From: Alphaproteobacteria bacterium | GTDB lineage: Bacteria; Pseudomonadota; Alphaproteobacteria; UBA828 | Reading direction: 5' to 3' | Assembly: GCA_965214705.1 (NCBI GenBank) | Contig: CBDCCI010000002.1 | Location: 512,001 to 576,000 of the forward strand | Length of the DNA: 64,000 nt | Shown: positions 11,572 to 44,621 of the stretch, one piece after another | Layout of the letters: every line of letters starts with the position of its first letter | Position numbering within the stretch: position 1 is the stretch's first letter | The notes under the pieces: generated by a model | What the model was told of the DNA's origin: nothing | The model's database searches: none | Seen by the model: the letters and a program-made list of their open reading frames with translations, nothing else | Translations under genes and position numbers: made by a program

Positions 11572-11650
11572 GGTTCAGAACGAAGCGCTCCGCTCCGCCG
11601 CCGGCCAGACTGGTTATCATGACGCAGACATGGAATTTATCCGATCTCAC
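11571..11650 (-). pseudogene. N-terminal stub of a further GT4 paralog
   Basis: VRSDKFHVCVMITSLAGGGAERFVLN, cut at the transposon end; matches the starts at 60533 and 63454. Confidence 0.8.
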
Positions 11651-12897: not shown

Positions 12898-12900
12898 CGG

Positions 12901-14010: not shown

Positions 14011-14013
14011 CCT

Positions 14014-15486: not shown

Positions 15487-16510
15487 TTGAACTGAGCCGC
15501 GTTCCGCGGCGGGGTGTCTTGCCCGCCGGGTAATCGGAGTGACCTCCCCACAGCAGGCAAGTTGATCGGGGCCGTCCGCCTCAGCGCGACGGCGCAGGGT
15601 CTCAACCCGTTTCTCTCTCGTTGATCGATGGTCGTCGACCGCCTGGCCCGCAAGCAAGAGCATGGGCGTGTCTTCGTGACAGATCAGACCAAGAGGGAGA
15701 CGCCCCATGACGCCGCTTCGTCAGCGCATGATCAACGACATGACCGTTCGCGGCTTCGCCGAGAACACCAGGAAGTCCTACCTCAACTCGGTCTCCAGGC
15801 TCGCGGTTCACTACGGCCGCAGCCCCGAGTTGATCTCGGCGGAGGAAGTCCAGGAGTACCTCATCTTCCTTCACGAAGAGCGGGGGCTGGCCTGGCAGAG
15901 CTGCAACAGCGCTCGCCAGGGGATCCGCTTCTTCTATCGCATCACGCTGGGCTTGCCCGAGCCGCACTTCTATCTGCCCTTCGCCAAGACGCCTTCCACC
16001 CTGCCCGTGCTGCTCAACCAAGAGGAACTGGTGCGGCTGTTCAGCGTCACCATCAACCGCAAGCACCGGGCCTTGCTGATGACGGCCTATGCAGCGGGGC
16101 TTCGGGCGAGCGAGCTCGGCCGGTTGCAGGTCGGCGACATCGACTCACAGCGCATGTTGCTGCGCATCGACCAGGGCAAGGGCAACAAGGACCGCTACGT
16201 CCCGCTTTCGCCCCGGCTGCTGGAGGAGCTGCGCGAGTACTGGCGGCGGGTACGGCCCGAGCACTGGCTGTTCCCCAGTCGGATTCTCGGCCGGCCGATG
16301 ACGCGCAGTGGGGCCTCACGCGTTTACAATGGAGCCAAGGACAAGGCCGGGATCGACAAGCCCGGCGGGATCCACACGCTGCGCCATTGCTACGCCACCG
16401 GGCTCCTCGAGGCGGGCGTCGAGTTGCACGGTAAGCGGTACGCAGACCCCATACCGGAATCTGGCTTGACTACGACGGGGATTTCTTGAGGAGCGCCGTG
16501 AGCGCGCGAG

Positions 16511-18253: not shown

Positions 18254-18319
18254 TGCATGACCAGGGAAAAGTGCAGGCGGGACCGCGACCGAAATCTGCG
18301 GCCCCGCCTGCGTGCCGCC

Positions 18320-18670: not shown

Positions 18671-19122
18671 GACGACGCCCGGCCCAGGCCCGAGGCCACC
18701 GCAACAATCCGATCGACCGCGCTCTCCACCGGAAGGCGAACGACCACGCCTAGCGCCTCGATCGCCACCGTCCGCTCGGACGTCACGCTATCAACCACCA
18801 CGGGAACAAATGGCGGTGCAGAGCCACCAATCCGAGCGCCCGGAAGAGTTCCCTCCCGCGCGCGCCGCCGCCACTTGGTCAGGGTCGTATCGCTGACGCC
18901 ATGGCGGCGCGCGACCGCCGCAACCGAAGAGCCCGGCTCAAAGCTCTCCGAGACAATCCGCGCCTTCTCATCGTCCGGCCAGCGTCGCATGGGGGCCGGC
19001 TCAGACGGAGCCGGGGCGGCTCCCTCAGAAGCTGGGATCTCAACCGAAGCAACAGCGACACCGTCGCCAGATGCCAAAATCGAATCTGTCATCGCGATCT
19101 CTCCTGTGTGGCTCGTGGTCAA
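18667..19122 (-). CDS. tnpA: IS66 TnpA (HTH)
   Basis: RRWPDDEKARIVSESFEPGSSVAAVARRHG. Confidence 0.88.
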   Translation of the reverse strand: MTTSHTGEIAMTDSILASGDGVAVASVEIPASEGAAPAPSEPAPMRRWPDDEKARIVSESFEPGSSVAAVARRHGVSDTTLTKWRRRAREGTLPGARIGGSAPPFVPVVVDSVTSERTVAIEALGVVVRLPVESAVDRIVAVASGLGRASS

Positions 19123-19324
19123 GGCGGAGAGTCAGCCCCGAAATCAGATCCGCTGGAAGTATGGGGGCCCGATACCGCTTACGTTGCACGTTATCCAACG
19201 CCGCCTCGGGCACACCTCCATCCGCTCCACCATGCGCTACCTGCACCTGGCCCACGACAAGACGTCGGCCACACCGTCTCCTCTGGACCTGCTGGAGTTC
19301 CCGCGTCCCGCCCAGGCATGACCG

Positions 19325-20542: not shown

Positions 20543-21379
20543 CGATGCGCCAGAGCCGAACAAGGTCCGATGACAGCCCGCCGGTCACCGCGCTGCGGTC
20601 GCTGCCGAGCACGCTTCGTGCCGTGCAGCGGCGGAACATCGTCGTGAGCTGCTGCACAGACGCGTCGCATTCTGCCGAGTTGAGATTCAGAGTGCCGGCG
20701 CCTCCAGGGAGACCAAAAAGCTGTACCGCTTCGGTCTGATTGACTTCCAAGCAGCGGTTACTTTCCCCATAGCCCGGCACCACGGCCGTGCCGCGCGGCT
20801 CAGCTCAATGCCTTTATCGGTCATGCTGCGCACGACCGATAAAGGCCAATTCATCATGCTCCGCCTCGGCCGGCGCAGCGGTCTCGTTCAATGAGGACAT
20901 ATCGTGTCTCCTTATGAGGATTGGTCAGAACGGCACCGTAGCGCCGGTCTTCGAGTCGCCTCATAGGATCTCTTGGGGTGCGTGACGCCGCGCCGGACAT
21001 GAATGGCCGGGCAAACGCATCGGCTTTGTTCGTGAGGTCCCGCACCTTTTATGAGGCTGTGGAAGTCAAGGAACGAAGCCTCTGTCTACCTCATGTGGAG
21101 CCCTCCCTGGGTTGGCAGTATCTTCGGCCGCTTTCGCCGGGTCGAAACGCTTCTTGCATCGGTCGCGCCTCAAGTACGCATACCCACCTTTTATCCGGGC
21201 GGTTGTCGGCAAGGGTGTGCCGAATCCGTCCCCCCAATCCCGCTTGCTGCGGGCGCAGCGTTCCGGAGGCGGGACCCATCTCTTGCCCGGCGTATTTCAG
21301 CCCGCGAGCAACCCGGCCACACGCCACCCGGCCCAGCGCCTGCCGCGTCCGGCCGGGCTGGAACAGTGCGGTCTCGGTG

Positions 21380-22520
21380 TCAGGCGAGCTTGGCGCCCGT
21401 CGGCACGAGACCGGTCCCGGAGAACCGCCACAGCGCGATGAGTAGCTTGCGGGCGAGCGCCACGATCATCACTCGGCGAATGCGGCCCCGAGCTCCGGCG
21501 GTGCGTTCCTCGAACCACTTGCTGAGCGCGCTGTCGGGTTGATGGCGCAACCAGCGCCACGCCATTTGGATGAGGAGGGCACGGATCCAGGCCGGACCGT
21601 CGCGGCCGATCCCCTGATCGCGTTGCACGTCCCCGCTTGCCCACGGAGCCGGCGTCAACCCGACCCAACTCGCGAGCTCACGGCGGTTGTGGAAGTCGCG
21701 GTAGAAGATCTCGTGCTCAAGCAGCGTCGCGTCGTTCGCGCCGATCCCCTTCAGTTGGGTCAACGTCGCGATCTTGGCCGCCGCCTTCTCCTGGCTTCCC
21801 TCCGGGGCGACCGGCGCCGGGATAGCCTCGCCCTGGCGGGCAACCGCATCTCGCTCCGCCTCGACTTCCGCGATCTGCCGCTGCACGAGCGACAGCCGCT
21901 CCACAAGCCGAAGGATCTCCTGGCGAGCCCGCGGCGGGAACGGCGATCCATATGCGGTCACCGTGTCCGCGAACGTCTCCTCGAACCCTTTGGCGCGGGG
22001 GTCCAGGTCGAAGATGCCGTGCAGCTTCAGCAGCCCCTTGATCGAGTTGGTCAGCGAGGTCCGCTCCTTCACCAGGCGCCGGCGCTCGCGAATCAGCCGC
22101 TTGCGATCCTCCTCCTCGACGCTCGGAACCCGCACACGGCTCAGCACTGCGGCGTCACCCCGGTCATGGGCGAGAAGGGCGCGCACCATCTTCTTCGCAT
22201 CGATCCGATCCGTCTTGCGCTGCTTCGCCTTCCGGTTCACCAACAGGCTCGCCGGATCGAGCACCACCGTCTCGATGGACATCTCCCGCTCCAGCCAGCG
22301 CTCCAGCCAGAAGCCCTCGTAGCCCGCCTCGTAGCAGCACAGGACGCGCACCTCTCGGTCGAGAGCCCGTTCAGCCTTGGCCCGCTGCTTCTCGATCAGA
22401 TCCCTGAGGCCTTCCGTGTCCGCCGGCCCGAGCGAGTGCAGGCCGATCTTTTCGCTGGTCGGGCTCTTGACCCCAACCACCCAGCTCTTCCGGCTGACCT
22501 CAATCGCCACGTACAGCGTG
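21380..22520 (-). CDS. IS110 transposase body, copy 2
   Basis: Same protein as 14346-15486. Confidence 0.9.
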
Positions 22521-22932: not shown

Positions 22933-25134
22933 CAGGGCGAATTTGTCCAAGCCTGATTTTTGAGTTCTGCGCTACGAGTTGACCTTGGGTCTGGTCAGCG
23001 CGCGCCAACCCTGCTATGGATTGAGGCGACTGGATTCGCGGTGTTCTGCTGCGGATCGGCTTCGAGCAGGGGGACGGTTTCTACGGTGGATCTTTCCGAG
23101 GTCGATGTCGCTGCTGTCCGGCCGGAGGACGAGGCCCGGTTCCGCGCGCTGATGGAGGGGCATCACTACCTGGGTGCGTCTGCGAAGGTGGGGGCGACGG
23201 CGTGGTACGTCGCCCATCGGCGCGGCGAGTGGCTGGCGCTGGCCGTGTTTTCGGCTGCGGCGCGCAAGTGCCGGGCGCGGGACGAGTGGATCGGCTGGGA
23301 CTTCCGCACGCAGCACGGGCGGCTGCATCTGATCGCGAACAACGCGCGCTTCCTGATCCTGCCGGGACGGGGTGTTCCGAACCTCGGCTCGCGGGTGCTG
23401 GGGCTTTGCGCGCGGCGCTTGGCGCGCGACTGGCCGGCCCGCTTCGGCCACCCCGTGCTGATGCTGGAAACATTCGTGGACGCGGCGAGGTTCCGGGGCA
23501 CGGTCTACCGGGCGGCTGGATGGCTGGCGGTCGGCCAGACCCGCGGCTTCCGGCGCCACCGCTCGGGCTATGTCGCCGGCTCGACGCCGAAGCTTGTGCT
23601 GCTGCGCCCCCTGGTTCCCGACGCCTGCCGCCGGCTGTCCGCTGCCGGGCTGGATCGGGAGTTGTGGAAGAAAGGAGTTCCGAGAACCATGATCAGCGCC
23701 GCTCAGCAAGAGTCGCTCTACGCCTACTTCAAGGACATCGACGACCCCCGCACGCGCAAGGGACGGCGGCATTCGCTGCCCAGCGTGCTCGCGCTTGCGA
23801 GTGGCGCGACGCTCTGCGGCATGCGAGGCTGGAAGGCCATGTCCGAGTGGGTCGACGATCTCGGCGAGAAGGCGCTGGCCCGCTTCGGCGTGCGGCTGCG
23901 CGACGGGGTGCGCCGGCCGCCTTCGATGTCGACCATCCGCAATGTGGTGATCCGGGTGGACCCGGACCAGTTGGACGAGGCGTTGCGCAAGTGGCAGGAG
24001 GCCCACGGCTCAGGCGACGCGGCGCTTGCCATCGACGGCAAGACCCTGAGGGGGGCCATCGACGAGGACGGGACCCAGGCTCATGTCATGAGCGCGGTCG
24101 GGCACGAGACCAAGGCCACGCTCGCCCAAAAAAACTTCTCCTGAAAGTCGGGGCCGACGAGGAGACAAAGCGCACCAACGAGATCGGCACCGTGACGGCG
24201 CTGGTGGACCTGATCCCGAACATCGCGGGCAAGACGGTCACGACGGACGCGCTGCTAACCCAGCGCAAGTTCGCCCGCTACCTGCTCGACCGGGGCGCGC
24301 ACTTCATGTTCATCGTGAAAGGGAACCAGAAGACCATGCGGGACGATGTGACGCTGCTCTTCGAAGAGGCGCCGGAGCGTGAGCCTGACTTCGAGGAGGA
24401 GGCCGCGCTGTCGCACGGACGCATCGAGCAGCGGGCAATCTGGACGAGCACGGAGTTGAACGGCTTTCTCGACTTCCCGGGCGTCGGCCAGGTCTTCATG
24501 ATCGAGCGCTCCCGCCAGGACAAGAAGACCGGCGAGACCGGCACCGAGACCGCCTACGGGATCTCCAGCCACACGCCCGGCACGGCCAACGCGCAGAGCC
24601 TGCTCGCCCTCAACCGCGGCCACTGGTGCATCGAGAACAGCTCGCACCACTGCCTCGACTGGACCTGGGACGAGGACCGCAGCCGCATACGCACAGGCTT
24701 CGGCCCCGAGAACATGACCCGCCTGCGGCGCTTCGCCATCGGCCTGATCAAGGGCCGGGGGCTCGAGGTCGCCTCGACCGTGCGCAGGCTCGCCCGCAAC
24801 GTCCGCGCCGTCCTCGACTTCCTGAAAATGACCGGGAACACCCAGCCGAGGACCGCAAAGCGCGCCGCGCCGGCCTGAACCCCGGCGCCCGGCAAGCCGG
24901 GCGCAAAGATCGTACCTGCCTCGCTCCCGACCACGCCGGTGGCGCGATCCATCATGTCGGGGCACCGCCAAATCGCGACGGCACCGCCCGCACCGCCCAC
25001 ACGGTAATGCCAGAACCCTCTGACCGAACCGGATGCTCGGCCAGACCCCGCCGCAAACCCCGCAACAAAGCCGATCCGCACAACCCGTGGCCAGAACTCA
25101 ACTGCCTACCAGCCGCTTGGACAAATTTGCCCTG
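22933..25134 (+). mobile_element. ISAs1-family element
   Basis: IR cagggcgaatttgtccaagc / gcttggacaaatttgccctg; 10-bp TSD ggcctggcag. Confidence 0.93.
22960..24878 (+). CDS. DUF4338/DruA-like domain fused to ISAs1 transposase, -1 frameshift at A7C (24128-24135)
   Basis: HHYLG, ANNARFLILP, LETFVD..GTVYRAAGW; then DPR..RH, AIDGKTLRG | TTDALLTQ, VKGNQ, RGHWCIEN; true start uncertain. Confidence 0.8.
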
Positions 25135-29722: not shown

Positions 29723-30699
29723 GCGTGCGGAAGAAAGAATCCGGCTCCCCAACTCAAGTGCATGGTTGCTAGGATCACCGGGAGAATGAACGCGGTGTAG
29801 GAACGGCGACGGATCCCGACCGTCAGGGACCCCATCATCAGGACGAAGAGGTAAGCGAGCGGCAACGCTACTGCCGCCTCCCAAGGGGCTCCAGCCGGAG
29901 CCAGGAGAGCCGAGACAGCCAGCCCCGACACCAGCAGCGGGGCGGCGAGATGCCGAATCCGCAGCGACGCGGGGTGCTGCCGCAGCATCGATATCTTCAT
30001 CCGGCCATAGTTGAAATATTGCTTGGCCAAGGCGCGCAGCGTGCCGCGGGGCCGGTATTCGACCGCGAGCTCGGGATCGAACCACACCGTCTCCCCTCGT
30101 TGCCGCAACCGGTAGTTGACCTCGTAGTCTTCGTTGCCATGCAGGGAGCGGTTGAAACTGCCCGCCGCTTCCAATGCTTCGCGTCGAAAGACGCCCAGGT
30201 AGACGGTGTCGGTCGGCCCCGCAGGGCCGCCAAGCCGATAACGCGCGTCGCCTGCCCCAAGTGGGGTGGTCATCGCGGTCGCTACCGCCCGCTCGAAGAA
30301 CGTGGTCCCGACCGCCCGTTGCCGGCCGCCCACATTCGCGGCCCCCGTTCTCTGAAGCGTCTCGACCGCGCCGCGCAGATATCCGGGCAGGAAAAACGCA
30401 TGGGCGTCGCAACGCACGATCACACACCCCGTCGCGACCTGCAGCGCTGCGAGGATGCCGGGGACGTGCAACTGGTCGGGGTTGGGGATCAGTCGCACCG
30501 ACGGGAAGAGTCGTCGAATCAGCTCCGCGGTAGCAGGGGTGTCGGAACCGTCGGAGACAATCACCTCTACCGGGCCCGGGTAATCCTGGGATATCACCGA
30601 ATCGAGACACTCCGCGATGGTCGCTTCAGCGTTGCGGGTCGGTATGATAACCGACACTGCGGGAAGGCGATTGGCGACGGCTGCTACTGGCTGCTTCAT
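29723..30699 (-). CDS. GT2 glycosyltransferase (ExoA-like), extreme 3' end replaced by IS
   Basis: VSVIIPTRN, SDGSD, VRCDAH, DTVYLG, NEDYEVN, HLSWGAGF. Confidence 0.88.
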
Positions 30700-30858
30700 G
30701 GGATGATCTTGGACATGCCCCTTGCGCTCAGAAGGCGATCAAAATACTCGATCACCTTCTCGAGTCCAGTTTCCAAAGGCGTGGCCGGCGTCCAATCGAG
30801 GTCATTCTTGGCTTTCGTGATGTCGGGCTGCCGCCGTCGCGGATCGTCTTGCGGCAAT
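30696..30858 (-). pseudogene. UDP-glucuronate decarboxylase/NAD-epimerase C-terminal remnant
   Basis: LPQDDPRRRQPDITKAKNDLDWTP..LETGLEKVIEYF. Confidence 0.8.
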
Positions 30859-31160
30859 CTTTAGGGTTGAGCAGGTTCGCGAGAGCGATCCTGCTCAACC
30901 CGTTTGAACGAAGCCGCGGGCCCCGAGACTGGACGTTGGATATGTGGAAAGTGCGCCGGTGGCGCGCTTAGGAAGGGATGACTGGCGGGATGCCTGTTGT
31001 CGCGGCTGCTGTTTCAGTCCGGGCTGGGCCGGCCTTCGGCACGTGAATCGGGGAGATCGATCGGGTCGAGCGGCGCGCCTGCGTGCATGATCGGGATCGA
31101 GCACGAGTTGCCCGGCTTGCCGGCGAGACGGCGCGGACGCACGAAGCTGAAGCGAAGGGA

Positions 31161-34100
31161 TTACCCACGGCTGCGACCCGTGTTCGGGCACCCGTCGGGT
31201 GGCGCCCGGCTCGCGTGGGCGGGACGCTGGCGAGGGATCTGGCGGACGAGGCGCAGCGGCGCTCCGCAATCGGGACAGGCCACGGGAGCGGTTCCGGGGT
31301 CCGCTATTTCGTCGCGCTCGCGCTCGCCTTTGGGCGCATCGTCATCGACACACTCGTCGTCGGGACAGCCGATAGGGCCGAGGGCTTCGCGCGCGCGCTC
31401 CAGCGTCCTGGCGCGGCATCCGTTGGCGAGGATGCCGAAGTGACGGATGCGGTGCATCCCGTCGGGCAGGACATGGAGCAGGAAGCGGCGGATGAACTCG
31501 TCGACGCTGACGGTCATGGTGCCGTAGCGGGGCTTGCTCTGCCCTGGCCCCTTGGGCTTTCGGTGCCGGAAGGAGACGGTCTCGCCGTCGAAGGCCGTGA
31601 TGCGGCTGTCGGAGATTGCGATCCGGTGGGTGTAGCGGGCGAGGTATCGGAACACCTGCCCAGGCCCGCGGAAGGGCCGCTTGGCGTAGACCACCCAGTC
31701 CCTGCTGCGTGCGGCGGCGAGTGTGGCGTGGAACTCGCCGGGGTTGGCGAGATGGGCGACGGTGCCGTGGAACTCCAGCTCGCCGCGGCCATGGGCGAGA
31801 GCCAACTCTTCGAGGAAGCGGCGGCGAAAGAAGCTGGCCAGGACCTTGACGGGGGCGAAGAAGGTGCCGCTCCCGGTCTTCCACTCGCCGCTCTCGACAT
31901 CGAAGCCCGCGTTGGGCACCACCACGTGCAGATGGGGATGGAAGCGGAGCTTCTGGTCCCAGGTATGGAGAACCGCGGTTCCGCCGATGCGCATGCCCCC
32001 ATGCCGGGGATCGGCGGCGATGGTGCGCAGGGTCTCGGCGACCGTCTTGAACAGGATGCCGAAGACGACCCTGCGGTTGCCGAAGCCGATGGCGGCGATC
32101 TGGGCTGGCAGGGTGAAGACCGCGTGGAAGTAGGGCACCGGCAGGAGCTCGGCGGCGCGTGCCTCGCTCCATCGGTTGGCTGCCAACCCCTGGCAGCTCG
32201 GGCAGTGGCGGTTGCGACAGGAATTGTAAAGCGGATGCTCGCGCCCGCAGCCCTCACAGGCGTAGATGTGCCCGCCGAGCACGGCGGTGCGGCGTAAGCG
32301 GTACGCAGACCCCATACCGGAATCTGGCTTGACTACGACGGGGATTTCTTGAGGAGCGCCGTGAGCGCGCGAGTCATTTTGCCTCGGGCTGGAAGTTCCA
32401 CGGCAGAAGCTCCTGGATGCCCGACTGCGGGTGGCCCTTGGCGATCTTCTCGAGCGTGCTCCGCATCCAGGCGTAGGGCTCGACGCCGTTCATCTTGCAG
32501 GTCTCGATCAGCGAGGCGATGCGGGCCCAGGCTTGCGCACCCTCGTCGTTGCCGGCGAAGAGCGCGTTCTTGGCGGTGAGCTTCAGCGGCCGGATTCGGT
32601 TTTCCACCAGGTTCGAGTCGATCTCGACACGACCGTCGTGCAGGAACTCCAGCAGCCCGTCCCACTGGTTGGCGATATAGGTCAGCTTCTCGCCGAGACG
32701 CGAGCGCGGTGAGACGCGCGAGCGCTGCTCGTCGAGCCAGACACCGAAGGTGTTCACGATCGGCGCCGACTCCTCCCAACGGATCGCGCGGCGCTCCGCC
32801 GGCGGCTTGCCCCGGATCTTCTTCTCGATCGCATAGAGCTTCGCGATCCGATTCAGACCGGCCAGCGCGATCGGCGATGCGCTCGAGTCGTATACCTCTT
32901 TCAGCTTCCGTCTTACATGCGCCCAACAGAGGGCCCGCGTCACAGGGCCTTCCGCCCGGTCCGGCCGCGCCAGGATGTTGTGGCCCGAGTAGCCGTCGAG
33001 CTGCACCGTCCCCGAAAAGCCCTCCATAAGCTCGGCGCCATACTTGCCGCCGCGGCCGGGCGCATAGCGATAGACGACGCCCGGCGGGTCCGTGCCGCTC
33101 CAGTGGCGCTCGTCACGCACAAGGGTCCACATGTAGCCCGTCTTCGTCTTGCCCCGGCCCGGGTCGAGAACGCGGATCGTGGTCTCGTCCAGACCCAGGT
33201 GATCCGACTTCTTCAGCTCATCCTCCAGGCAAGCGACCACGGGGCGCAGGTGAAACGACGCCTGGCCCACCCACGTCGCCAGCGTCGCACGGTGAACCTC
33301 GATCCCCGAGCGCTCGTAGATCTGCGACTGGCGATAGAGCGGGCAATGATCGCCGTACTTCGCGATCAGCACCTGCGCCAGAAGAGCCTCGGTGGGAAGG
33401 CCGCCCTCGACCAGAGCGGCCGGCGCCGGCGACTGCACCACCCCGCCCCCCTTGCACTTGTTGCAGGCGTAGCGGGGGCGCACGGTCTCGATGACGGTGA
33501 ACTTCGCCGGCTCATAGTCCAGCCGCTCGCTGCGGTCCTCGCCGATCTTCGTCATCTCGCCGCAGCCGCAGGGGCACATGATCGTGTCCGGCTCGATCAC
33601 CTCCTCGCGCCGGTCGACCTGGGGCCCGAAGCGCACCCCGCTGCGCGACCCCCGGGAAGAGCGCCGCCGGCGCTTGCCGCCAGCCCCCTCGTCCTGCTCC
33701 TGGTCATCTGCCTCGGGCCGACCGCCGGCTTCAGCGATCGCCGCCCAAAACTCCTCGAACGTAAGCTGGCGCTCGTCCTCGCCGAGCTTCTCGGAGCGCG
33801 GACCGAACAGCGCCTTCCTGAGCTCCTTGTTGAGATGCTCAAGCCGGCTGATCTGCTCCGCGCTCTGCGCGTTCTCGGCCTCCAGCCGTGCCGCCCGCGC
33901 TTCCGCCGTCTGCCTCGCCGCCTCCGCCGCGCCGCGTGCCTGCTCCGCTTCGCATAGGGCTGCTTCCGTCGCCCGGCGCGCCGCGCGCTCGTCGTCAAGC
34001 TCCGCATGCAGGGCCGCCAGCGCCGCCGAAACCACCGCAGGCGACGGCGAACCGGCGCTGCTGAGGGGTGAGGGCGTGACCTTCGGCATGGGCCACCCCT

Positions 34101-35174
34101 TAATCCGATTCGCCAATGCATGACCAGGGAAAAGTGCAGGCGGGACCGCGACCGAAATCTGCGGCCCCGCCTGCGTGCCGCCTCACTCCGCCGCCAGCGG
34201 GCGGCGAACCGGGCGGGCCTTCACCCGGCGCCAGTCCAGACCCTCGAAGAGGGCCTCGAACTGGCCCTTCGTAAGGCGCATCACACCATCCTCGATCCGA
34301 GGCCAGGCGAAGCGGCCCTGCTCCAGACGCTTGTAGGTCATCACCAGACCGCTGCCGTCCCACGCAAGGAGCTTGAGCCTGTCGCCGCGGCGCGAGCGGA
34401 AGATCACGATCACCCCGGAATAGATATCGAGGTCCAGCTCCCCCGCCGCCGTCGCCGCAAGCGCGTCGTGGCCGCGACGAAAATCAACCGGCCGCGTCGC
34501 CAACACGATGCGAAGCGAGGGGGCCGCGATCATGACGACGCCCGGCCCAGGCCCGAGGCCACCGCAACAATCCGATCGACCGCGCTCTCCACCGGAAGGC
34601 GAACGACCACGCCTAGCGCCTCGATCGCCACCGTCCGCTCGGACGTCACGCTATCAACCACCACGGGAACAAATGGCGGTGCAGAGCCACCAATCCGAGC
34701 GCCCGGAAGAGTTCCCTCCCGCGCGCGCCGCCGCCACTTGGTCAGGGTCGTATCGCTGACGCCATGGCGGCGCGCGACCGCCGCAACCGAAGAGCCCGGC
34801 TCAAAGCTCTCCGAGACAATCCGCGCCTTCTCATCGTCCGGCCAGCGTCGCATGGGGGCCGGCTCAGACGGAGCCGGGGCGGCTCCCTCAGAAGCTGGGA
34901 TCTCAACCGAAGCAACAGCGACACCGTCGCCAGATGCCAAAATCGAATCTGTCATCGCGATCTCTCCTGTGTGGCTCGTGGTCAAGGCGGAGAGTCAGCC
35001 CCGAAATCAGATCCGCTGGAAGTATGGGGGCCCGATACCGCTTACGGTGCGGCACGCCTCGATCGCAGCCATGACCTTGAGCCGGGCGGCGTCGATGCGC
35101 CCCTTGCAGCGCTCACGGAAAGCGAGGCCGGCGCGGCGGAAGATGTCCGCCACGCCGACGTTCTGGCGATCCAC
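31161..35174 (-). pseudogene. IS91-type Y2 transposase split by IS66
   Basis: CRT|AVLGG..NSCRNRHC, HPHLH, YLARY. Confidence 0.9.
32294..35045 (-). mobile_element. IS66 copy 2 (tnpC 32374-34116, tnpB 34183-34533, tnpA 34530-34985)
   Basis: Identical proteins to copy 1; TSD ggtgcggc. Confidence 0.95.
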
Positions 35175-35180
35175 GCCGGA

Positions 35181-36056
35181 TCAGCGGCGAAGCAGCGGAA
35201 AGTCCGAGATGGGGTGATCGAGGCCCTCGAACATCCTGGCGGTGGAGCGCGCGTACTCGCGGGTCGTGTCCGCACGACGATGGCCGAGCATGTCGCGGAT
35301 CACCTCCATGTTGCCGCCCCGCTCATGAAGATGGGTGGCGGCCGAATGACGCAGGCAGTGGAAGGTGTGGCGGCTGTCGACGCCGGCCCGCTCGCGCGCC
35401 TTCTTGAAGGCCACGTGCAGGTCCCCTGTCCGGATGGGCACGTCGGGCGAGGCGCCATAGAAGAGCCAGCTCTCCGGCTCCGGCCAGATGTTCTTGTAGT
35501 AGCCGCGCAGGTAATGGATGACGGCTTCCGGCATCGGTGCCATCCTCTCGGTGCCGCCCTTGCCGGAAGGGATGTGTAGCAGCTTCTGGTCCGACTTGAT
35601 GTCGCCGATCTTGATGGCCACGGTCTCGGAGATGCGAAGCCCGACACCGTAGGCGGTGACGATGGCGGCGCGGTACCGGAGGTCGGGCGTTGCGAGGATG
35701 ATGCGCTCGACCTCCTCCTCCATGTGTCGCGGCAGCTTGCGGGGCTTCTTGCGGGCGCGCAGCCCGGCCACGCGCTCAGGGCATCCCAGGGTCTCGGCAT
35801 AGAAGAACTTCAGGGCGGCGACGGTGACGTTGGTCGTCGCCGGCTTCAGGCCGCGATCGATGCCGGACAGGACCCAGGCGCGCACCTGGTCGGCGTCGAG
35901 GTCGGCCGGCGAGGCCTTGTAGTGCTTGGCAAGCTGCGCGATCTCGCCGATGTAGATGGTCTGCGTGCTCTCGGCGAAGTTGGCGATGCGCATCTGGTCG
36001 ATCATGCGCTGGCGAAGAGGGCTGCCCGTTGTCCCCTCGGCTGTGGTCTCGGTCAT
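35181..36056 (-). CDS. XerD/IntI-like tyrosine recombinase
   Basis: SPLRQRMI, YGVGLRISE, GKGG, HCLRHS, MLGH, TREYA. Confidence 0.9.
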   Translation of the reverse strand: MTETTAEGTTGSPLRQRMIDQMRIANFAESTQTIYIGEIAQLAKHYKASPADLDADQVRAWVLSGIDRGLKPATTNVTVAALKFFYAETLGCPERVAGLRARKKPRKLPRHMEEEVERIILATPDLRYRAAIVTAYGVGLRISETVAIKIGDIKSDQKLLHIPSGKGGTERMAPMPEAVIHYLRGYYKNIWPEPESWLFYGASPDVPIRTGDLHVAFKKARERAGVDSRHTFHCLRHSAATHLHERGGNMEVIRDMLGHRRADTTREYARSTARMFEGLDHPISDFPLLRR

Positions 36057-36288
36057 CGTCGATCTCCCGTGATCGCGACGGCGAGCCGCCGGACCGTTCC
36101 GACGACGGACCGTCTCGGGGATCGATGCTAACCACTGGTGATCGGGAACATGCCGGCCACTCGCCCGACCGGCGCTGCGCCAATGGACGCAATCTGAAGC
36201 GCGCGCGACACCTGCCAGCAGCGCACCCCGCACATCGAGGAAATGAACGAACGCTAGGCCGCCAACTCCGCGTAGCGGCTTCGTTCAA

Positions 36289-36502
36289 CTCCACATGGAT
36301 CCCGCGCCCGGCGCTCGCCTCCGTTCGAGAAAACCTCCGCCAGTCCCTCGATCGCCTGGCGCCTCCAGGCGCCGACTTGGTTCGGATGCACCTGGTGACG
36401 CGAGGCGATCTCTTGGAGCGTCCGATCCCCCCCAAGCGCCTCAAGCGCGATCTTCGCCTTCTGCTCCCCCGAAAACCTGCGTCGCTTGCCGCTGATCTGC
36501 AT
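36289..36502 (-). pseudogene. IS3-family OrfA fragment
   Basis: KRRRFSGEQKAKIALEAL..IASRHQVHPNQVGAW; cut by variant A end. Confidence 0.8.
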
Positions 36503-36654
36503 TCCTCCGTCAGACGGTGGAATACACCTTAACGCGTACCTCCGGTGCTATGACACTGATATAGCGTTGTTTTTTCTCTCTCGCAAAGGAGGATCGGAGC
36601 GGTTTTCAGAGCCGTTTCCGCCCCGGCTGCAACCGTCCAGGGGAGGAAAAGTAC

Positions 36655-37502
36655 ATGCCCACCGTCAAGCTCGACCAGCGCCGGGTCGATGCCCTGATAC
36701 CCCGCAAGTGCGCCTACGACGTGCGCGACAGGGACCTCAAAGGCTTCGGCCTGCGGGTCTGGCCGTCGGGAAAGAAGCGCTACTTCGTCCACAGCCAATA
36801 CGAGGGCCGGCGCGTCTGGAAGACCGTCGCCAGCGCCGAGAGCGCGAGCGCTGGCGAAGCCCGCGCGCGGGCATCCACGATGCTCGCCGCGATCCGGCTA
36901 GGCGGCGACGCGCGCCCGTCGCACGAGGAAGCCGTGTTCGAGGCCGTCGCCGACGAGGTCTTCACGCGCTACGCGCGAAACTGGAAGCCCGGAACCCTCA
37001 AGGTCAACCGGAACTACTACCGCAACCACATCCTGCCACGCTTCAAGGGCCGCCCGATCACCGGCATCGACAGCCGCGACGTTCGGCAGTGGTTCGCATC
37101 GCTCCACGCGACGCCCGCTGCAGCGGACCGGTCCGCTCCGATCCTGTCCGTCATCATGCGTCAGGCCGAGATCTACGGCTATCGCCCGGAAGGCAGCAAC
37201 CCGTGCAAGGGCATCAAGCGATACCGGCGCCAAGGGCGCGAACGGTTCCTGTCGGCGGCGGAGATGCGCAGCCTGGCTGCGGCACTCGGCCGCTTCGAGG
37301 CCGACCGTCCACAGCAGGTCGCCATCATCAGGCTGCTGTTGCTGACCGGGTGTCGCGGTAGCGAGGTTCGCACGCTGAAGTGGCGCTACCGGCGCGAGGG
37401 CAAGCTGTTCCTGCCCGATAGCAAGACCGGGCCGCGAACGGTCTGGCTGTCGTCCGCCGCTGGCGCGGTCCTGGACCGCGTACCGCAAACCGCAAGCTGG
37501 AT
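36655..37502 (+). pseudogene. Arm-type integrase truncated by variant B
   Basis: Paralog of 1-860; lacks HxxR and Tyr; ends at ttgaac 37503. Confidence 0.85.
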
Positions 37503-37733
37503 TTGAACGAAGCCGCTACGCGGAGTTAGCGGCGTAGAGTTCATTCATTTCCGAGGCGTCGCGGGTGCCGTTTGCCCTGTGCGTTCGCTTCCCGGTTGCG
37601 TCAGTGGCGCTCCGCCCGTCGAGTGGCGGATCCCCGGCAGCCTCCCGATCACCAGTGGTTAGCATCGACCCCTGCGACGGACCGTCGCCGGATCGGTCCG
37701 GCGGCGCGCCGTCGCGATCCAGGGAGATCGATA

Positions 37734-38612
37734 ATGACCGGGACCGCGTGCGACACGAACACCGTCACCCCTCTTCGCCAGCGCATGGAGGAGCAGCTCC
37801 GCATCGCCAATCTGGCCGCGAGCACGTCCAAGGCCTACATCTGCGAGATCAAGAACCTGGCCAGGTACTACGACGCCTCGCCGGACGAGCTCGACGCCGA
37901 GCAGGTGCGCCAGTGGTACCTGGGGCGGATCGACAAGGGGCTCAGTCCGGGCACGACCAACGTCTCCTTCGCCGCGCTGAACTTCCTCTACATCGACACA
38001 CTCGGCTGGCCTGACCACGTCGCCGGCCTGCGCTCCCGCAAGAAGCCCGGCAAGCTGCCGCGCTACATGTCGGAGCAGGAGGTCGAGCACCTCATCCTTG
38101 CGACGCCCGACCTCCGCCACCGTGCTGCCATTGTCACCGGCTATGGCGGCGGGCTCCGCATCTCCGAGACCTTGGCCATCAAGGTCGGCGACATCCTGTC
38201 GGAGAAGAAGCTGCTGCACATCCCCTCCGGCAAAGGCGGCACCGAGAGAATGGCACCGTTGCCGGACAGCGTCATCCACTACTTGCGCGCCTACTACAGG
38301 AACATCTGGCCGCGTCCGACGAGCTGGCTCTTCTACGGCGTCTCGCTCGACAGGCCCATCGCAACGGAGACCTTGCAGGCCGCCTTCAGGAGGGCGCGCG
38401 ACATTGCCGAGCTCGACCGCAGCTACACCTTCCATTGCCTGCGCCATTCGGCGGCGACCCATCTCCTCGAGCGCGGCGGCGATATCGAGGTGATCCGGGA
38501 CATGCTCGGCCATCGAAGCGCGAACACGACCCGTCACTACGCCCGCGTCACCGGCAAGATGTTCGAGGGCCTCGACCACCCGATCTCAGGCTTCGCAGCG
38601 TTGCGCAACTGA
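37734..38612 (+). CDS. XerD/IntI-like tyrosine recombinase
   Basis: TPLRQRM, GLRISE, HCLRHS, MLGH, TRHYA. Confidence 0.9.
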   Translation: MTGTACDTNTVTPLRQRMEEQLRIANLAASTSKAYICEIKNLARYYDASPDELDAEQVRQWYLGRIDKGLSPGTTNVSFAALNFLYIDTLGWPDHVAGLRSRKKPGKLPRYMSEQEVEHLILATPDLRHRAAIVTGYGGGLRISETLAIKVGDILSEKKLLHIPSGKGGTERMAPLPDSVIHYLRAYYRNIWPRPTSWLFYGVSLDRPIATETLQAAFRRARDIAELDRSYTFHCLRHSAATHLLERGGDIEVIRDMLGHRSANTTRHYARVTGKMFEGLDHPISGFAALRN

Positions 38613-38915
38613 CGGCGCGTGGAGGCCGAACGCGCGGGCGTGGCGGAGATCCTCCGCCGCGCCGGCGCCGCTTTCCGTGAGCGCCACAAAGGGCGCATCG
38701 ACGCCGCCCGGCTCAAGGTCATGGGCGCCATCGAGGCGTGCCGCACCGCCGTGCTCGGCGGCCACATGTACGCCTGCGAGGGCTGCGGGCGCGAGCATCC
38801 GCTCTTCAGATACCATGAGCACGGTGGCATCGAATCGCGTCTGGCAGTTAGAGAAGCTCGGAGAGAAGGCCAGCACCTTCTCTCCGAGCGGAATCGTCAA
38901 CAACGGAGTGGACGG

Positions 38916-40112
38916 ATGTCGGATGGTCCAGACACGACCGCGCTGACAGGCGCAAGTAGTAGCACGATTTATGTCGCGGTGGAGATCAGCCTCAAATCGT
39001 GGATTGTGGGCGTGCATTGCCCGGATGCCTCGGGTGGCAGCATCAGCATCCACACACTGGCTGCTGCCGACACGGCGGGACTGTTGGATCTCGTCGGGTC
39101 GGTGCGGGAACGGGTGGCGAGGGAGCTCGGCGCCCGTCCTCGGGTGATGCTGACCTACGAGGCGGGCTACGAGGGGTTCTGGCTGGCCCGCGATATCGAG
39201 CGCCGTGACGCGGAGATCGATATCTTCATGAACGATCCGGCGAGCCTGCGGGTGAACCGGCGCGCCAAGAAGAAAAAGACCGACCGCATCGACGCGAGGA
39301 GAATGGTTCGGGCTCTGAAGGCATGGGACCAAGGCGATTCGGAGGCCATGTCCTGGGTGCGCGTGCCCGACGTGGACCGGGAGGACGCCAAGCGCCTGCT
39401 GCGCGAGAGGGACACGCTGATCAGCGAGCGTACCCGCGTCAACAACCGGATCAAAGGGCTCTTGCAGTTGCACGGCATCTTCGATCTGGCGCCGCGCAAG
39501 CCGGACTTCCTCGAACGCCTCGCGGCCGCGCGGACGGGCTATGGGGCGCCGTTGCCGCCGCGGGCGCGTGCGGAGATCGAGAGGGCGGTGCGGATGCTTC
39601 GCCTGGTTGAGGACCATATCGAGATGATCGAGGCCGAGAAGAAGGCCCTGCTGAAGGCTGGCCGGAAAACCCAGGACGCGACCGACGGTGACGGGACGGC
39701 GATGATCGCGGCGCTTACGCGCATCCACGGCATCGGCCTCAATGACGCCACACTGCTGGCTGGCGAGGTGTTCTATCGGGACTTCCGCAATCGCCGGGAG
39801 TTGGGCAGCTGGGCCGGGTTGACGTCGGTGCCGTGGGCGAGCGGAGATGTCGACCACGATCTTGGCATCAGCAAGGCCGGCCCCTCGCATGTCAGGAAGC
39901 ACATGATCCAGATGGCCTGGCGCTGGTTGAAACTGCAACCGGAAAGCGCGATCACGAAGTGGTTCCATGCCTACGTCGCCAGGGATGCCGGTGGCGGGAG
40001 GGACCGGCGAGCGAGGAAGCGGGCGATCGTGGGGGTCGCGCGCAAGCTGCTGATCGCGCTGTGGCGCTATGCCACCCAGGGACTGGTGCCCGAGGGCGCC
40101 ATCGTCTCCTGA
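38916..40112 (+). CDS. IS110 transposase
   Basis: YVAVEIS, YEAGYEG, KKTDRIDA, GLTSVPWASG. Confidence 0.92.
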   Translation: MSDGPDTTALTGASSSTIYVAVEISLKSWIVGVHCPDASGGSISIHTLAAADTAGLLDLVGSVRERVARELGARPRVMLTYEAGYEGFWLARDIERRDAEIDIFMNDPASLRVNRRAKKKKTDRIDARRMVRALKAWDQGDSEAMSWVRVPDVDREDAKRLLRERDTLISERTRVNNRIKGLLQLHGIFDLAPRKPDFLERLAAARTGYGAPLPPRARAEIERAVRMLRLVEDHIEMIEAEKKALLKAGRKTQDATDGDGTAMIAALTRIHGIGLNDATLLAGEVFYRDFRNRRELGSWAGLTSVPWASGDVDHDLGISKAGPSHVRKHMIQMAWRWLKLQPESAITKWFHAYVARDAGGGRDRRARKRAIVGVARKLLIALWRYATQGLVPEGAIVS

Positions 40113-40469
40113 GGACAGCAGCCGAACGAACAGGAGAATACAGGAGGTTCCGACGTGGTCGGACGCGGCCGCGGAGGATGCCGGGCAAGGCGTGTGACCG
40201 GGCAAGAGTTGGGTCGCCGCTTGGCACCGTTCTACAGATGGGTCCCGCCTCCCGGAACGTCGTTACCGCTTGGATGCGGTATTGGGGTCACGGAGCCGGC
40301 AAGCGCCGGAGTTCCGAACCGGATAAGAGCTGAGCAGCGTGACGAATCGCTGCGTGGGAAGGACGTTCTGCCTGGCCATCAACCGCGGAAAACGGAAAAA
40401 GACTCGAAGGGGAGAACAGGAATGCCATTGACGTAGATGAAGCCGGGCCTTGCGGAGAGAGCTCATAAG
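40113..40469 (+). ncRNA. Putative bridge/seekRNA region
   Basis: Long 3' non-coding end with motifs shared with 14014-14345. Confidence 0.6.
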
Positions 40470-41773: not shown

Positions 41774-44525
41774 GTAAGCGGTATCGGGCCCCCATACTTC
41801 CAGCGGATCTGATTTCGGGGCTGACTCTCCGCCTTGACCACGAGCCACACAGGAGAGATCGCGATGACAGATTCGATTTTGGCATCTGGCGACGGTGTCG
41901 CTGTTGCTTCGGTTGAGATCCCAGCTTCTGAGGGAGCCGCCCCGGCTCCGTCTGAGCCGGCCCCCATGCGACGCTGGCCGGACGATGAGAAGGCGCGGAT
42001 TGTCTCGGAGAGCTTTGAGCCGGGCTCTTCGGTTGCGGCGGTCGCGCGCCGCCATGGCGTCAGCGATACGACCCTGACCAAGTGGCGGCGGCGCGCGCGG
42101 GAGGGAACTCTTCCGGGCGCTCGGATTGGTGGCTCTGCACCGCCATTTGTTCCCGTGGTGGTTGATAGCGTGACGTCCGAGCGGACGGTGGCGATCGAGG
42201 CGCTAGGCGTGGTCGTTCGCCTTCCGGTGGAGAGCGCGGTCGATCGGATTGTTGCGGTGGCCTCGGGCCTGGGCCGGGCGTCGTCATGATCGCGGCCCCC
42301 TCGCTTCGCATCGTGTTGGCGACGCGGCCGGTTGATTTTCGTCGCGGCCACGACGCGCTTGCGGCGACGGCGGCGGGGGAGCTGGACCTCGATATCTATT
42401 CCGGGGTGATCGTGATCTTCCGCTCGCGCCGCGGCGACAGGCTCAAGCTCCTTGCGTGGGACGGCAGCGGTCTGGTGATGACCTACAAGCGTCTGGAGCA
42501 GGGCCGCTTCGCCTGGCCTCGGATCGAGGATGGTGTGATGCGCCTTACGAAGGGCCAGTTCGAGGCCCTCTTCGAGGGTCTGGACTGGCGCCGGGTGAAG
42601 GCCCGCCCGGTTCGCCGCCCGCTGGCGGCGGAGTGAGGCGGCACGCAGGCGGGGCCGCAGATTTCGGTCGCGGTCCCGCCTGCACTTTTCCCTGGTCATG
42701 CATTGGCGAATCGGATTAAGGGGTGGCCCATGCCGAAGGTCACGCCCTCACCCCTCAGCAGCGCCGGTTCGCCGTCGCCTGCGGTGGTTTCGGCGGCGCT
42801 GGCGGCCCTGCATGCGGAGCTTGACGACGAGCGCGCGGCGCGCCGGGCGACGGAAGCAGCCCTATGCGAAGCGGAGCAGGCACGCGGCGCGGCGGAGGCG
42901 GCGAGGCAGACGGCGGAAGCGCGGGCGGCACGGCTGGAGGCCGAGAACGCGCAGAGCGCGGAGCAGATCAGCCGGCTTGAGCATCTCAACAAGGAGCTCA
43001 GGAAGGCGCTGTTCGGTCCGCGCTCCGAGAAGCTCGGCGAGGACGAGCGCCAGCTTACGTTCGAGGAGTTTTGGGCGGCGATCGCTGAAGCCGGCGGTCG
43101 GCCCGAGGCAGATGACCAGGAGCAGGACGAGGGGGCTGGCGGCAAGCGCCGGCGGCGCTCTTCCCGGGGGTCGCGCAGCGGGGTGCGCTTCGGGCCCCAG
43201 GTCGACCGGCGCGAGGAGGTGATCGAGCCGGACACGATCATGTGCCCCTGCGGCTGCGGCGAGATGACGAAGATCGGCGAGGACCGCAGCGAGCGGCTGG
43301 ACTATGAGCCGGCGAAGTTCACCGTCATCGAGACCGTGCGCCCCCGCTACGCCTGCAACAAGTGCAAGGGGGGCGGGGTGGTGCAGTCGCCGGCGCCGGC
43401 CGCTCTGGTCGAGGGCGGCCTTCCCACCGAGGCTCTTCTGGCGCAGGTGCTGATCGCGAAGTACGGCGATCATTGCCCGCTCTATCGCCAGTCGCAGATC
43501 TACGAGCGCTCGGGGATCGAGGTTCACCGTGCGACGCTGGCGACGTGGGTGGGCCAGGCGTCGTTTCACCTGCGCCCCGTGGTCGCTTGCCTGGAGGATG
43601 AGCTGAAGAAGTCGGATCACCTGGGTCTGGACGAGACCACGATCCGCGTTCTCGACCCGGGCCGGGGCAAGACGAAGACGGGCTACATGTGGACCCTTGT
43701 GCGTGACGAGCGCCACTGGAGCGGCACGGACCCGCCGGGCGTCGTCTATCGCTATGCGCCCGGCCGCGGCGGCAAGTATGGCGCCGAGCTTATGGAGGGC
43801 TTTTCGGGGACGGTGCAGCTCGACGGCTACTCGGGCCACAACATCCTGGCGCGGCCGGACCGGGCGGAAGGCCCTGTGACGCGGGCCCTCTGTTGGGCGC
43901 ATGTAAGACGGAAGCTGAAAGAGGTATACGACTCGAGCGCATCGCCGATCGCGCTGGCCGGTCTGAATCGGATCGCGAAGCTCTATGCGATCGAGAAGAA
44001 GATCCGGGGCAAGCCGCCGGCGGAGCGCCGCGCGATCCGTTGGGAGGAGTCGGCGCCGATCGTGAACACCTTCGGTGTCTGGCTCGACGAGCAGCGCTCG
44101 CGCGTCTCACCGCGCTCGCGTCTCGGCGAGAAGCTGACCTATATCGCCAACCAGTGGGACGGGCTGCTGGAGTTCCTGCACGACGGTCGTGTCGAGATCG
44201 ACTCGAACCTGGTGGAAAACCGAATCCGGCCGCTGAAGCTCACCGCCAAGAACGCGCTCTTCGCCGGCAACGACGAGGGTGCGCAAGCCTGGGCCCGCAT
44301 CGCCTCGCTGATCGAGACCTGCAAGATGAACGGCGTCGAGCCCTACGCCTGGATGCGGAGCACGCTCGAGAAGATCGCCAAGGGCCACCCGCAGTCGGGC
44401 ATCCAGGAGCTTCTGCCGTGGAACTTCCAGCCCGAGGCAAAATGACTCGCGCGCTCACGGCGCTCCTCAAGAAATCCCCGTCGTAGTCAAGCCAGATTCC
44501 GGTATGGGGTCTGCGTACCGCTTAC
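41774..44525 (+). mobile_element. IS66 copy 3 (tnpA 41834-42289, tnpB 42286-42636, tnpC 42703-44445)
   Basis: Identical proteins; TSD cctgagtg. Confidence 0.95.
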
Positions 44526-44621
44526 CCTGAGTGGCACGTCGGAGGTTGTCCCGGTAGCCAATAGGGGGGTTCCTGTTGGCCCACCGGGGCAAGCGGGCCG
44601 CAGGGGAGGCCCGCGTTGGGG

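Follow-up and report, generated by a model that had tools for sequence, protein, structure and literature searches.

A split IS91-family element of the recombinase-carrying subgroup, with probable ter- and ori-type ends, in an alphaproteobacterial contig

We analysed 64,000 nucleotides of contig CBDCCI010000002.1 (assembly GCA_965214705.1, positions 512,001 to 576,000 of the forward strand) from an alphaproteobacterium of the GTDB lineage UBA828. This whole stretch is referred to as the window, and all positions are counted from its first letter. The segment 30859-36288, here called element A, is probably one copy of an IS91-family insertion sequence (IS) of the recombinase-carrying subgroup that was split by an IS66-family element, and its two ends probably represent the terIS and oriIS regions of such an element. 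The ends share a perfect 14-bp inverted pair, TTGAACGAAGCCGC at 30904-30917 and its exact reverse complement at 36275-36288, with no inward extension of the match, and a hairpin at 30864-30901 lies outside the left copy. A first-pass annotation, made from the letters alone, had proposed this pair and hairpin, and both stand in coordinates and in letters. Two further copies in the window, B and C, are related to A and likewise broken.

Defining the exact ends of three divergent, broken IS91-family copies is useful for the annotation of an IS-ridden region. It also provides a compact and testable anatomy for the recombinase-carrying IS91 branch: a GAAC box with a 5-bp mini-hairpin at one end and, at the other, a conserved CCCCATAG box followed by an inverted repeat, a hairpin with a co-varying stem and a short tail. 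Via this anatomy, the role of the recombinase in these widespread elements becomes directly testable. The features of element A are as follows.

30859..30863, minus strand: ori-side tail TAAAG (CTAAAG when counted with the preceding base), between hairpin and host DNA
30864..30901: ori-side hairpin, a 12-bp perfect stem GGGTTGAGCAGG / CCTGCTCAACCC with a 14-nt loop that holds a 4-bp inner stem
30904..30917, minus strand: inverted copy of the terminal repeat on the ori side, reading GCGGCTTCGTTCAA in the sense of the transposase
30938..30950, minus strand: TTTCCACATATCC, degenerate counterpart of CCCCATA[AG], a box that relatives keep inward of their ori-side repeat
31161..32293, minus strand: transposase gene, 3' part; IS91-family Y2 HUH, with HPHLH and YLARY in the translation
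32294..35045, minus strand: inserted IS66-family element (tnpA/B/C), 2752 bp, foreign to A, in the 5' part of the transposase gene
35046..35174, minus strand: transposase gene, 5' part, after the recombinase stop codon
35181..36056, minus strand: tyrosine recombinase gene (Xer/IntI-like); open reading frame (ORF) open to 36233, likely start ATG 36056
36268..36278: ter-side mini-hairpin, CCGC gta GCGG on the plus strand; 4 bp in A and B
36275..36288, plus strand: ter-side terminal repeat of A, with GTTC at 36283-36286; integrase-proximal end

Genes and family identity of element A

Element A carries two genes on the minus strand, a tyrosine recombinase and, directly downstream of it, a transposase. 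The split transposase can be read across the IS66-family insertion, with ..GVADIFRRAG..AIEACRT in the 5' part running into ..AVLGGHIYACEGCG in the 3' part. It matches the Pfam families Y2_Tnp (PF04986, 4.1e-56) and Zn_Tnp_IS91 (PF14319, 8.9e-25), both of which also match B and C. Against the NCBIfam model NF033538 (IS91 family transposase, cut-off 125), it scores 355.4 bits, and the intact gene of C 443.8 bits. Without the IS66 copy and one target duplication, A measures 2670 bp.

A is a damaged new member of a known family, within the subgroup that has a recombinase gene upstream of a Y2 HUH rolling-circle transposase gene. It possesses the Y2 HUH transposase with an N-terminal zinc-binding domain that is characteristic of IS91. 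By its letters, the integrase-proximal end holds a subterminal palindrome beside GTTC, the putative cleavage tetranucleotide, as in a terIS, and the palindrome at 30864-30901 lies downstream of the transposase gene, as in an oriIS. The canonical description of IS91 has no terminal inverted repeats, whereas A has its perfect 14-bp pair. This repeat does not remove A from the IS91 family, because the family is defined by its transposase.

The recombinase matches Pfam Phage_integrase (2.8e-33) and Phage_int_SAM_4. Its closest PDB match is 4a8e, an XerC-like protein (1.6e-26), and IntI4 was also matched (3e-19). It scores below all NCBIfam Xer cut-offs (XerA 137.5 < 220, XerC 128.8 < 335, XerD 110.1 < 330) and below those of the integron-integrase models TIGR02249 (117.4 versus 265, in two stretches) and NF011946 (70.2 versus 435). 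A recombinase-in-trio (RIT) element had been guessed from three long plus-strand ORFs and was rejected: these ORFs have no Pfam match, the real genes lie on the minus strand and there is one recombinase per element.

Anatomy of the two ends

The right-hand repeat of A is a terIS-type end, consisting of a GTTC box, 4 nt and a small hairpin, and the left-hand repeat is an inverted copy near the oriIS-side end. On the plus strand, the ter end reads CCGC-gta-GCGG-CTTC-GTTC (36268-36286), followed by two bases to the flank. A wider imperfect palindrome (36244-36286) surrounds the mini-hairpin and folds with a z-score of -3.30. On the ori side, the hairpin folded as single-stranded DNA (ssDNA) yields z-scores of -5.85 on the plus strand and -5.26 on the minus strand, and none of 200 dinucleotide shuffles was as good. 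Among the 40 short-range inverted repeats of the 64-kb window, the A hairpin ranks 5th and that of C 4th. The pattern TTGAACNNAGCCGC, allowing at most one mismatch, matched six times in the window, with 0.41 matches expected; six were reached in 0 of 100 shuffles.

To the left of A, a host frame of ~44-47 codons runs on the minus strand from 30860 and encodes the C-terminus of a UDP-glucuronate decarboxylase (E 1e-9, residues 271-311 of 336). As this UXS-like frame resumes at or before 30860, A ends between ~30858 and 30863, and the tail at 30859-30863 is likely the transposase-distal (ori-side) terminus, within ~3 nt. This agrees with the earlier proposal that host sequence resumes a few nt past the hairpin. 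The right flank of A is an IS3-type orfA fragment, and the two flanks thus stem from unrelated genes. One base past the 14-bp repeat, TGGA is common to A and B (4 of 5 positions; 36244-36293 and 37498-37568). Because of this common stretch, the ter-side terminus of both elements could be situated as much as ~5 nt outside the repeat.

Copies B and C in the window

The ends of the two other copies lie at the following positions.

37503..37516, plus strand: ter-side terminal repeat of B, the third exact copy of the 14-mer; B is inverted relative to A
15487..15500, plus strand: ter-side terminal repeat of C, TTGAACTGAGCCGC; duplicated at 22521
20795..20846, plus strand: ori-side repeat and hairpin of C; repeat 20795-20808 (1 mismatch), hairpin 20810-20846

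B consists of an integrase gene (37572-38612) and a transposase gene split by an IS110-family element at ~38809-40469. Its ori-side end is missing, lost to the end of an IS21-like element that itself holds another IS66 copy. On the ter side, B adjoins a fragment of a P4-type integrase (36655-37506). Compared with a full-length paralogue, this fragment is homologous up to residue 279, corresponding to base 37491. The proposed start of B at 37503 with the 14-mer of A, next to a truncated integrase, holds with a boundary uncertainty of ~5 nt.

In C, the integrase gene begins at 15707 and is cut by an IS66 copy (16427-19182), and the transposase gene spans 19325-20542. An exact CCCCATA[AG] box is found at 20765-20772. 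The C hairpin has a 12-13-bp stem whose sequence is unlike that of A; as ssDNA it folds with z-scores of -4.53 and -4.26, again with 0 of 200 dinucleotide shuffles as good. C has its own repeats and its own stem, and A repeats the end architecture of C with different sequence, as the first-pass annotation had recognised.

The IS66 copy in A is flanked by an 8-bp target duplication, GGTGCGGC, at 32286-32293 and 35046-35053, and the same target sequence is present once in B (38740-38747). As A, B and C are all broken by other insertion sequences, none of them is expected to move by itself. Three 100%-identical IS66 copies occur in the window (16427-19182, 32294-35045 and 41774-44529), with 8-bp target duplications where checked. 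Their targets were the C recombinase gene, the A transposase gene and one end of the IS21-like element, and the pattern points to a recent burst.

Relatives of element A

Relatives of the A recombinase were found in 284 plasmid records (E ≤ 1e-30), all at ≤39% identity, and a scan of one genome per species gave 582 recombinase relatives among 595 candidates. The best 80 of the 582 genome loci were fetched, all with ≤41% recombinase identity to A. Of 83 loci (numbered with the prefix L), 51 have the tandem order recombinase then transposase on the same strand, 42 of them with a complete transposase. The gene pairs of L001 and L003 are annotated as 'tyrosine-type recombinase/integrase' followed by 'IS91 family transposase', and likewise those of a Legionella plasmid (L085) and a Clostridium plasmid (L086). 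Several whole contigs, of 2491-2769 nt, are just as long as the element.

Transposase identities in a spread sample of 2472 plasmid records fell into two classes, 44-54% (recombinase-linked where inspected) and 24-31% (enterobacterial IS91/IS1294 type). Among the 45 spread matches listed, identity was ≤54%, with one further record in the 60-80% band. A search of plasmids for near-identical DNA returned no close relative: the ori half of A gave short 74-87% matches inside transposase genes, the IS66 copy reached ≤82% and the host flank had no match. Judged by their sequences, A, B and C are a distant lineage within the recombinase-carrying IS91 elements.

Despite proteins that are less than 55% identical, the 14-mers can be identical in relatives. 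L001, L006 and L010 carry exactly the A 14-mer at their ter end, and the clostridial locus L027 carries it at its far end. The C 14-mer is found in a Gemmatimonadales contig (L013). A look for recombinase-only relatives that might share these ends was uninformative: L057 sits in another context, and L017 is interrupted by an ISL3 element.

A common end anatomy in recombinase-carrying relatives

We read the anatomy of these relatives in the sense of the genes; the ori-side tally was made by eye and partly by a covariance model (R1, below). At the near end, the common layout is NN-G(A/G/C)AC-N4-(N)CCGC, then 3-9 nt, then GCGG(N'), which forms the mini-hairpin, with the last 5 nt of the terminal repeat as its first arm. 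The stem is exactly 5 bp long in 33 of 38 elements and reaches at least 4 bp in 36 of 38; none has 6 bp. The fifth pair is A-T in 16 elements, G-C in 10 and C-G in 9, and is unpaired in three (A, B and L015).

At the far end, the order is the box CCCCATAG, 9-39 nt, the inverted repeat copy, 0-12 nt, the hairpin, a 5-8-nt tail and host DNA. The box CCCCATA[AG] lies ~220-300 nt past the transposase stop and is exact in 30 of 45 elements, or present with at most one mismatch in 41 of 45. Inverted copies that match at 12-14 of 14 positions occur in relatives. When the best inverted 13- or 14-mer was picked automatically, chance pairs were taken in several loci; a filter on position and mismatches rejected 17 of 40 picks, and these loci were read again by eye. 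The inverted copy lies 223-270 nt past the transposase stop in 27 of the 40 automatically picked sites, A and C among them. Hairpins range from 28 to ~95 nt in length, and tails include CTTCAC, CTAAAC, CTCAGAC and CTATAC, with unrelated DNA beyond. Contigs L005, L025 and L036 stop 5-6 nt past the hairpin, which is at the tail.

Read by eye, an inverted repeat with an outside hairpin is present in 40 of the 42 loci with a complete transposase. The exceptions are L004, where the contig stops within the hairpin, and L012, which has a frameshifted transposase and shows nothing; L008 and L028 have weak stems. The Clostridium plasmid locus fits the ori layout (z -2.66). Overall, the layout of repeat, inverted copy, outside hairpin and short tail recurs in Proteobacteria, Acidobacteriota, Gemmatimonadota and Bacillota, with unrelated stem sequences.

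Locus L024 contains two copies, which are identical for 8 nt past the stem and then diverge. Around the full copy, no target duplication was seen. The second, identical far end (repeat, hairpin and tail; 495-583) is located upstream of the full copy, 3.7 kb from its near end, and may belong to a neighbouring copy or stand alone as a solo end. Among the right flanks of relatives, ..AGCGGAC.. or an initial GTTTG is recurrent (L033, L044, L029, L002 and L076; L015, L016 and L032). These motifs could belong to a second palindrome of the element or reflect a target preference.

The ori-side hairpin is conserved as structure

Between clades, the stems are wholly different in sequence, for example ACTTTCG../..CGAAAGT, GGTTTTCC../..GGAAAACC and GGAAATCA../..TGATTTCC; A has GGGTTGAGCAGG, C has CCTTTATCGGTC and two Bacillota contigs have AAACGAAAGGGCAGT. 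Within one alignable clade, covariation can be measured. In a MAFFT training alignment of eight sequences from one clade, 79.5% of the cells were paired, versus 27-44% when the partner strand was slid, and 6 of 14 stem pairs had changed on both sides; none of 500 shuffles reached this on four measures, and 9 of 500 did on a fifth. In an alignment of 17 distinct sequences of one clade, which was fitted to the model and therefore favours structure, 81.3% of the cells were paired (28-51% when slid), 8 of 14 pairs had changed on both sides, and 0 of 500 shuffles were as good on all five measures. That pairing is kept despite sequence change had been read from A and C alone, and the covariation bears this out.

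Covariance model R1 was built from eight ends and run over 638 kb. At E ≤ 0.001 it retrieved nine further ends in ten matches (L035, L037, L023, L024 twice, L002, L019, L009, L018 and L005), and L051, L055, L036, L076 and L020 gave weaker matches over the full model length where an end was expected. Its match to A is weak (30857-30917, minus strand, 14.8 bits, E 0.43) and covers the full model length. A match at 6349-6378 of the window was set aside as chance, since it comprises the repeat part only (11.8 bits, E 2.6). The search of relatives that the first-pass annotation had suggested thus recovered ends of the same kind, and A weakly.

Folding measures give a more modest signal. Seven more ends have z-scores from -2.66 to -6.79. 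When the best single hairpin was compared with six random sites of the same locus, 17 of 42 ends beat all six (6 expected by chance) and 29 of 42 had a value lower than the mean of their controls (Mann-Whitney p 5e-6, Wilcoxon p 3e-5). The case for the hairpin rests on its position, its covariation and its retrieval by the model, not on its stability.

Could the hairpin merely terminate or insulate transcription behind the transposase gene, or be a host repeat at the landing site? It does lie ~260 nt downstream of the transposase stop and on the transcribed strand. A terminator scan of 30500-36600 found eight sites, none of them at 30864-30901, and on neither strand is the hairpin followed by a T run (tails TAAAG and GTTTG). 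Moreover, the hairpin is symmetric and keeps a fixed place relative to repeat and terminus in different phyla and at different insertion sites, and therefore travels with the element; the two L024 copies share the same hairpin between different flanks. This explanation is largely refuted and in our view very improbable. The first-pass annotation had suggested that structure conserved over sequence implies function, and had named two outcomes that would speak against it, absence of the hairpin from most homologues and behaviour as a terminator only. Neither outcome was observed: by eye, most homologous loci have the hairpin, and T runs do not follow it. Together with the recurrence of the layout in distant relatives from four phyla and the measurable covariation, this supports the earlier suggestion.

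A further possibility is that the hairpin resembles a single-strand origin or is a stabilising structure, which primes the complementary strand or protects the circle and is not a recognition element of the transposase. An IS91-type element is expected to pass through a single-stranded circle (PMC13181058, PMC5714925; these and the other publications cited here are drawn on in their available excerpts), and the wide variation of the hairpin in length and sequence is as expected if foldedness alone matters. However, the hairpin foot and the tail keep recognisable sequence within clades, and the spacing is maintained at 0-12 nt from the repeat and 5-8 nt from the terminus, which resembles a positioned recognition element. 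In addition, the single-stranded circle of IS91 is reported to insert directly (PMC13181058). On balance, we regard an origin-like or stabilising role as quite improbable.

Comparison with known rolling-circle and recombinase systems

IS91, IS801 and IS1294 have two functionally different ends. In the excerpted description, oriIS has one or two subterminal palindromes and terIS one palindrome beside the cleavage site, GTTC, or CTCG in IS91. The target tetranucleotides are CTTG, GTTC and GTCC, without target duplication. Transposition proceeds via a single-stranded circle; insertion is direct and involves the bottom strand only (all PMC13181058; single-stranded circle also PMC5714925). The canonical members are described there without terminal inverted repeats (PMC13181058, PMC5714925).

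Element A shares with these canonical elements the Y2 HUH transposase with a zinc-binding N-terminus, the small ter palindrome beside GTTC and the palindrome or palindromes on the ori side. Around the full L024 copy, as stated above, no target duplication was seen. In contrast to A, the canonical elements, as far as these excerpts describe them, have no recombinase gene and no terminal inverted repeats, and they adjoin a GTTC, CTTG or GTCC target at the ori end, which was not seen in the A clade. Transposase identity to the canonical type is 24-31%. We compared a canonical enterobacterial IS91-type gene pair from an E. coli plasmid (L084) by layout only, as its boundaries are not established. 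It has a GAAC-N4-palindrome layout on the upstream side and, on the downstream side, a box TTTCCTATAC that is immediately followed by GTCC. The box of L084 thus ends at GTCC, whereas the box of the A clade lies 9-39 nt inside the repeat, and repeat, hairpin and tail extend beyond it. Judging from these layouts, the far-end extension and the terminal repeat appear to be what sets the recombinase-carrying clade apart from the canonical description. Past the TTTCCTATAC box of L084, positions 2770-2800 contain GTCC-N4-palindrome (TGCCGC gcca GCGGCA), a ter-end-like layout.

The recombinase-carrying IS91 relatives resemble A in gene pair and gene order, in size (~2.5-2.75 kb) and in having a ter repeat with mini-hairpin, an inverted copy, an outside hairpin and a tail. 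Most of them differ from it in a 5-bp mini-hairpin and an exact or nearly exact box, compared with the 4-bp mini-hairpin and degenerate CCCCATAG box of A, and A, B and C are all interrupted. IS91 members with a recombinase ORF upstream of the transposase are listed in ISfinder/TnPedia, among them ISAzo26, ISMno23 and ISWz1. ISWz1 is named as an IS91-family member in an excerpt of PMC11322121. A description of the A-type end anatomy was not found in the literature searched, a search that did not extend to ISfinder and TnPedia.

Hairpins at one or both ends are reported as general for Rep/HUH transposons (PMC10288648). Helitrons and IS200/IS605 elements, like A, have a hairpin a few bases inside one terminus that is read on ssDNA. 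The 3' hairpin of Helitrons acts in termination. Unlike A, these elements use unrelated transposase subfamilies (RepHel with a helicase in Helitrons, Y1 TnpA in IS200/IS605), and they have no recombinase partner and no 14-bp terminal inverted repeat.

Integron cassettes (attC/IntI) and the XerCD-dependent integration of CTX phage offer a different parallel. There, as in A, the far end holds half a stem, the near end holds the other half together with an inner hairpin and a few bases, and the recombinase is of the Xer/IntI kind. On this basis, the repeat-hairpin-repeat junction could be a folded single-stranded recombination site, attC-like or CTX-phage-like, for the element's own tyrosine recombinase. 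The HUH transposase would peel off a single-stranded circle, the repeats would pair, and the recombinase would exchange one strand at the foot of the stem. This would explain the integrated geometry, in which the repeat at the start and the inverse repeat, hairpin and few bases at the end have the appearance of an integrated gene cassette, a geometry that can be read directly from the sequence.

Several observations are in line with such a site. IS91-linked recombinases are placed in an 'integron-like' subgroup as closest homologues of IntI (bioRxiv 10.1101/542381, excerpt), IntI4 is among the PDB matches of the A recombinase, and the integron-integrase model is its third-best NCBIfam match. 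Terminal repeats are reported absent from recombinase-less IS91 elements, in the excerpts available, and are present in the recombinase-carrying clade, whose transposases form the separate 44-54% identity class. An IS91-like element is also reported to form 'a new gene cassette structure' beside attC (PMC9229058, excerpt).

However, the elements are inserted at diverse places, namely in genes for a sugar-nucleotide decarboxylase and a P4-type integrase, beside IS110 and at two unrelated sites in L024. A shared core at two element junctions was sought, and none was convincing. Diverse sites without a core fit transposition better than site-specific integration. The A recombinase fails the integron-integrase and Xer cut-offs, the IntI-specific insertion is reported to be absent from IS91 recombinases (bioRxiv 10.1101/542381, as excerpted), and A, in contrast to integron and CTX systems, encodes its own HUH transposase and belongs to elements with varied insertion sites. 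Pairing of the repeats in a single-stranded circle is not independent evidence, because inverted repeats guarantee it, and IS ends commonly co-vary where one protein reads both. We therefore think that a recombinase site is unlikely. The same holds for the corresponding division of labour, a doubtful proposal in which the HUH transposase makes the single-stranded circle and the IntI-like recombinase acts on the folded junction, with the repeats as its binding arms. If true, these elements would be self-mobilising, cassette-like units and a possible evolutionary link from rolling-circle transposons to integron-type single-strand recombination.

A model for the ends and the evidence against it

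Assigning A to the recombinase-carrying IS91 elements suggests how its ends may work, by analogy with IS91, IS801 and IS1294. Most likely, the two ends would be the cis sites for rolling-circle transposition by the Y2 transposase, read on ssDNA. The small hairpin with GTTC would mark the cut of the displaced strand that ends a round (termination or cleavage), and the large hairpin would position the enzyme at a start or joining point a few bases away. The product would be a single-stranded circle, which would insert at a new place and leave no target duplication. In this circle, the two 14-bp repeats would flank the hairpin and could pair to form one long, interrupted stem. The terminal repeat has three possible readings: one protein module may read both ends, the repeats may pair in the single-stranded circle, or they may be binding arms of the recombinase.

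A number of findings weigh against the assignment of the ends or against this model. In A itself, the mini-hairpin has just 4 bp (5 bp in most relatives), and the box region reads only TTTCCACATAT, which makes A one of four among 45 elements without a CCCCATAG box match. At its ori-side terminus there is no tetranucleotide of the GTTC/CTTG type, the flank past the tail being ATTGCCGCAAG (termini +/- 1-3 nt). Relatives show no consistent flank or target consensus either, and the two L024 copies have TCTG and GTCT, with the same tolerance on their termini. L012 shows neither ori repeat nor hairpin, and L085, from the Legionella plasmid, has a ter end and no clear ori repeat or hairpin (z +0.22). 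By a permissive measure of hairpin energy, A was matched by three of six random sites and C by four of six, so that neither is exceptional. When 100-nt folding windows were compared with all windows of the same locus, a measure that is too blunt, the ends fell into the lowest 5% of their own locus in 3 of 23 cases, into the lowest 10% in 7 and into the lowest 25% in 12. Folding energy alone is weak evidence in GC-rich DNA. The terminal repeat is a departure that the canonical IS91 model leaves unexplained. Finally, the cut strand and its position are inferred, and in the window no copy is intact and there is no sign of activity.

Further observations in the window

An IS110-family element adjoins the terminal repeat of C exactly (..gtacagcgtg|TTGAAC) and is found at 14008-15486 and 21042-22520. 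IS110 and the beginning of C form a block that occurs twice, with an ISAs1-like insertion (22960-24878) in the second copy of C. The IS110-family element that splits the B transposase is related to the one beside C. At the very start of the C transposase gene (19334-19373), there is a hairpin of 18 nt with 94% complementarity, which has no counterpart in A.

Apart from these elements, paralogous blocks at 6885-12900 and 48304-54620 show 74-99% identity by segment and encode GT4 glycosyltransferases and a PF21804 'Transposase_29' protein. In the second block (51248-54619), the Transposase_29 ORF reads on into an asparagine-synthase domain. A 75-bp unit forms a perfect tandem duplication at 11421-11570, and a third copy with 83% identity lies 42 kb away (53554-53628).

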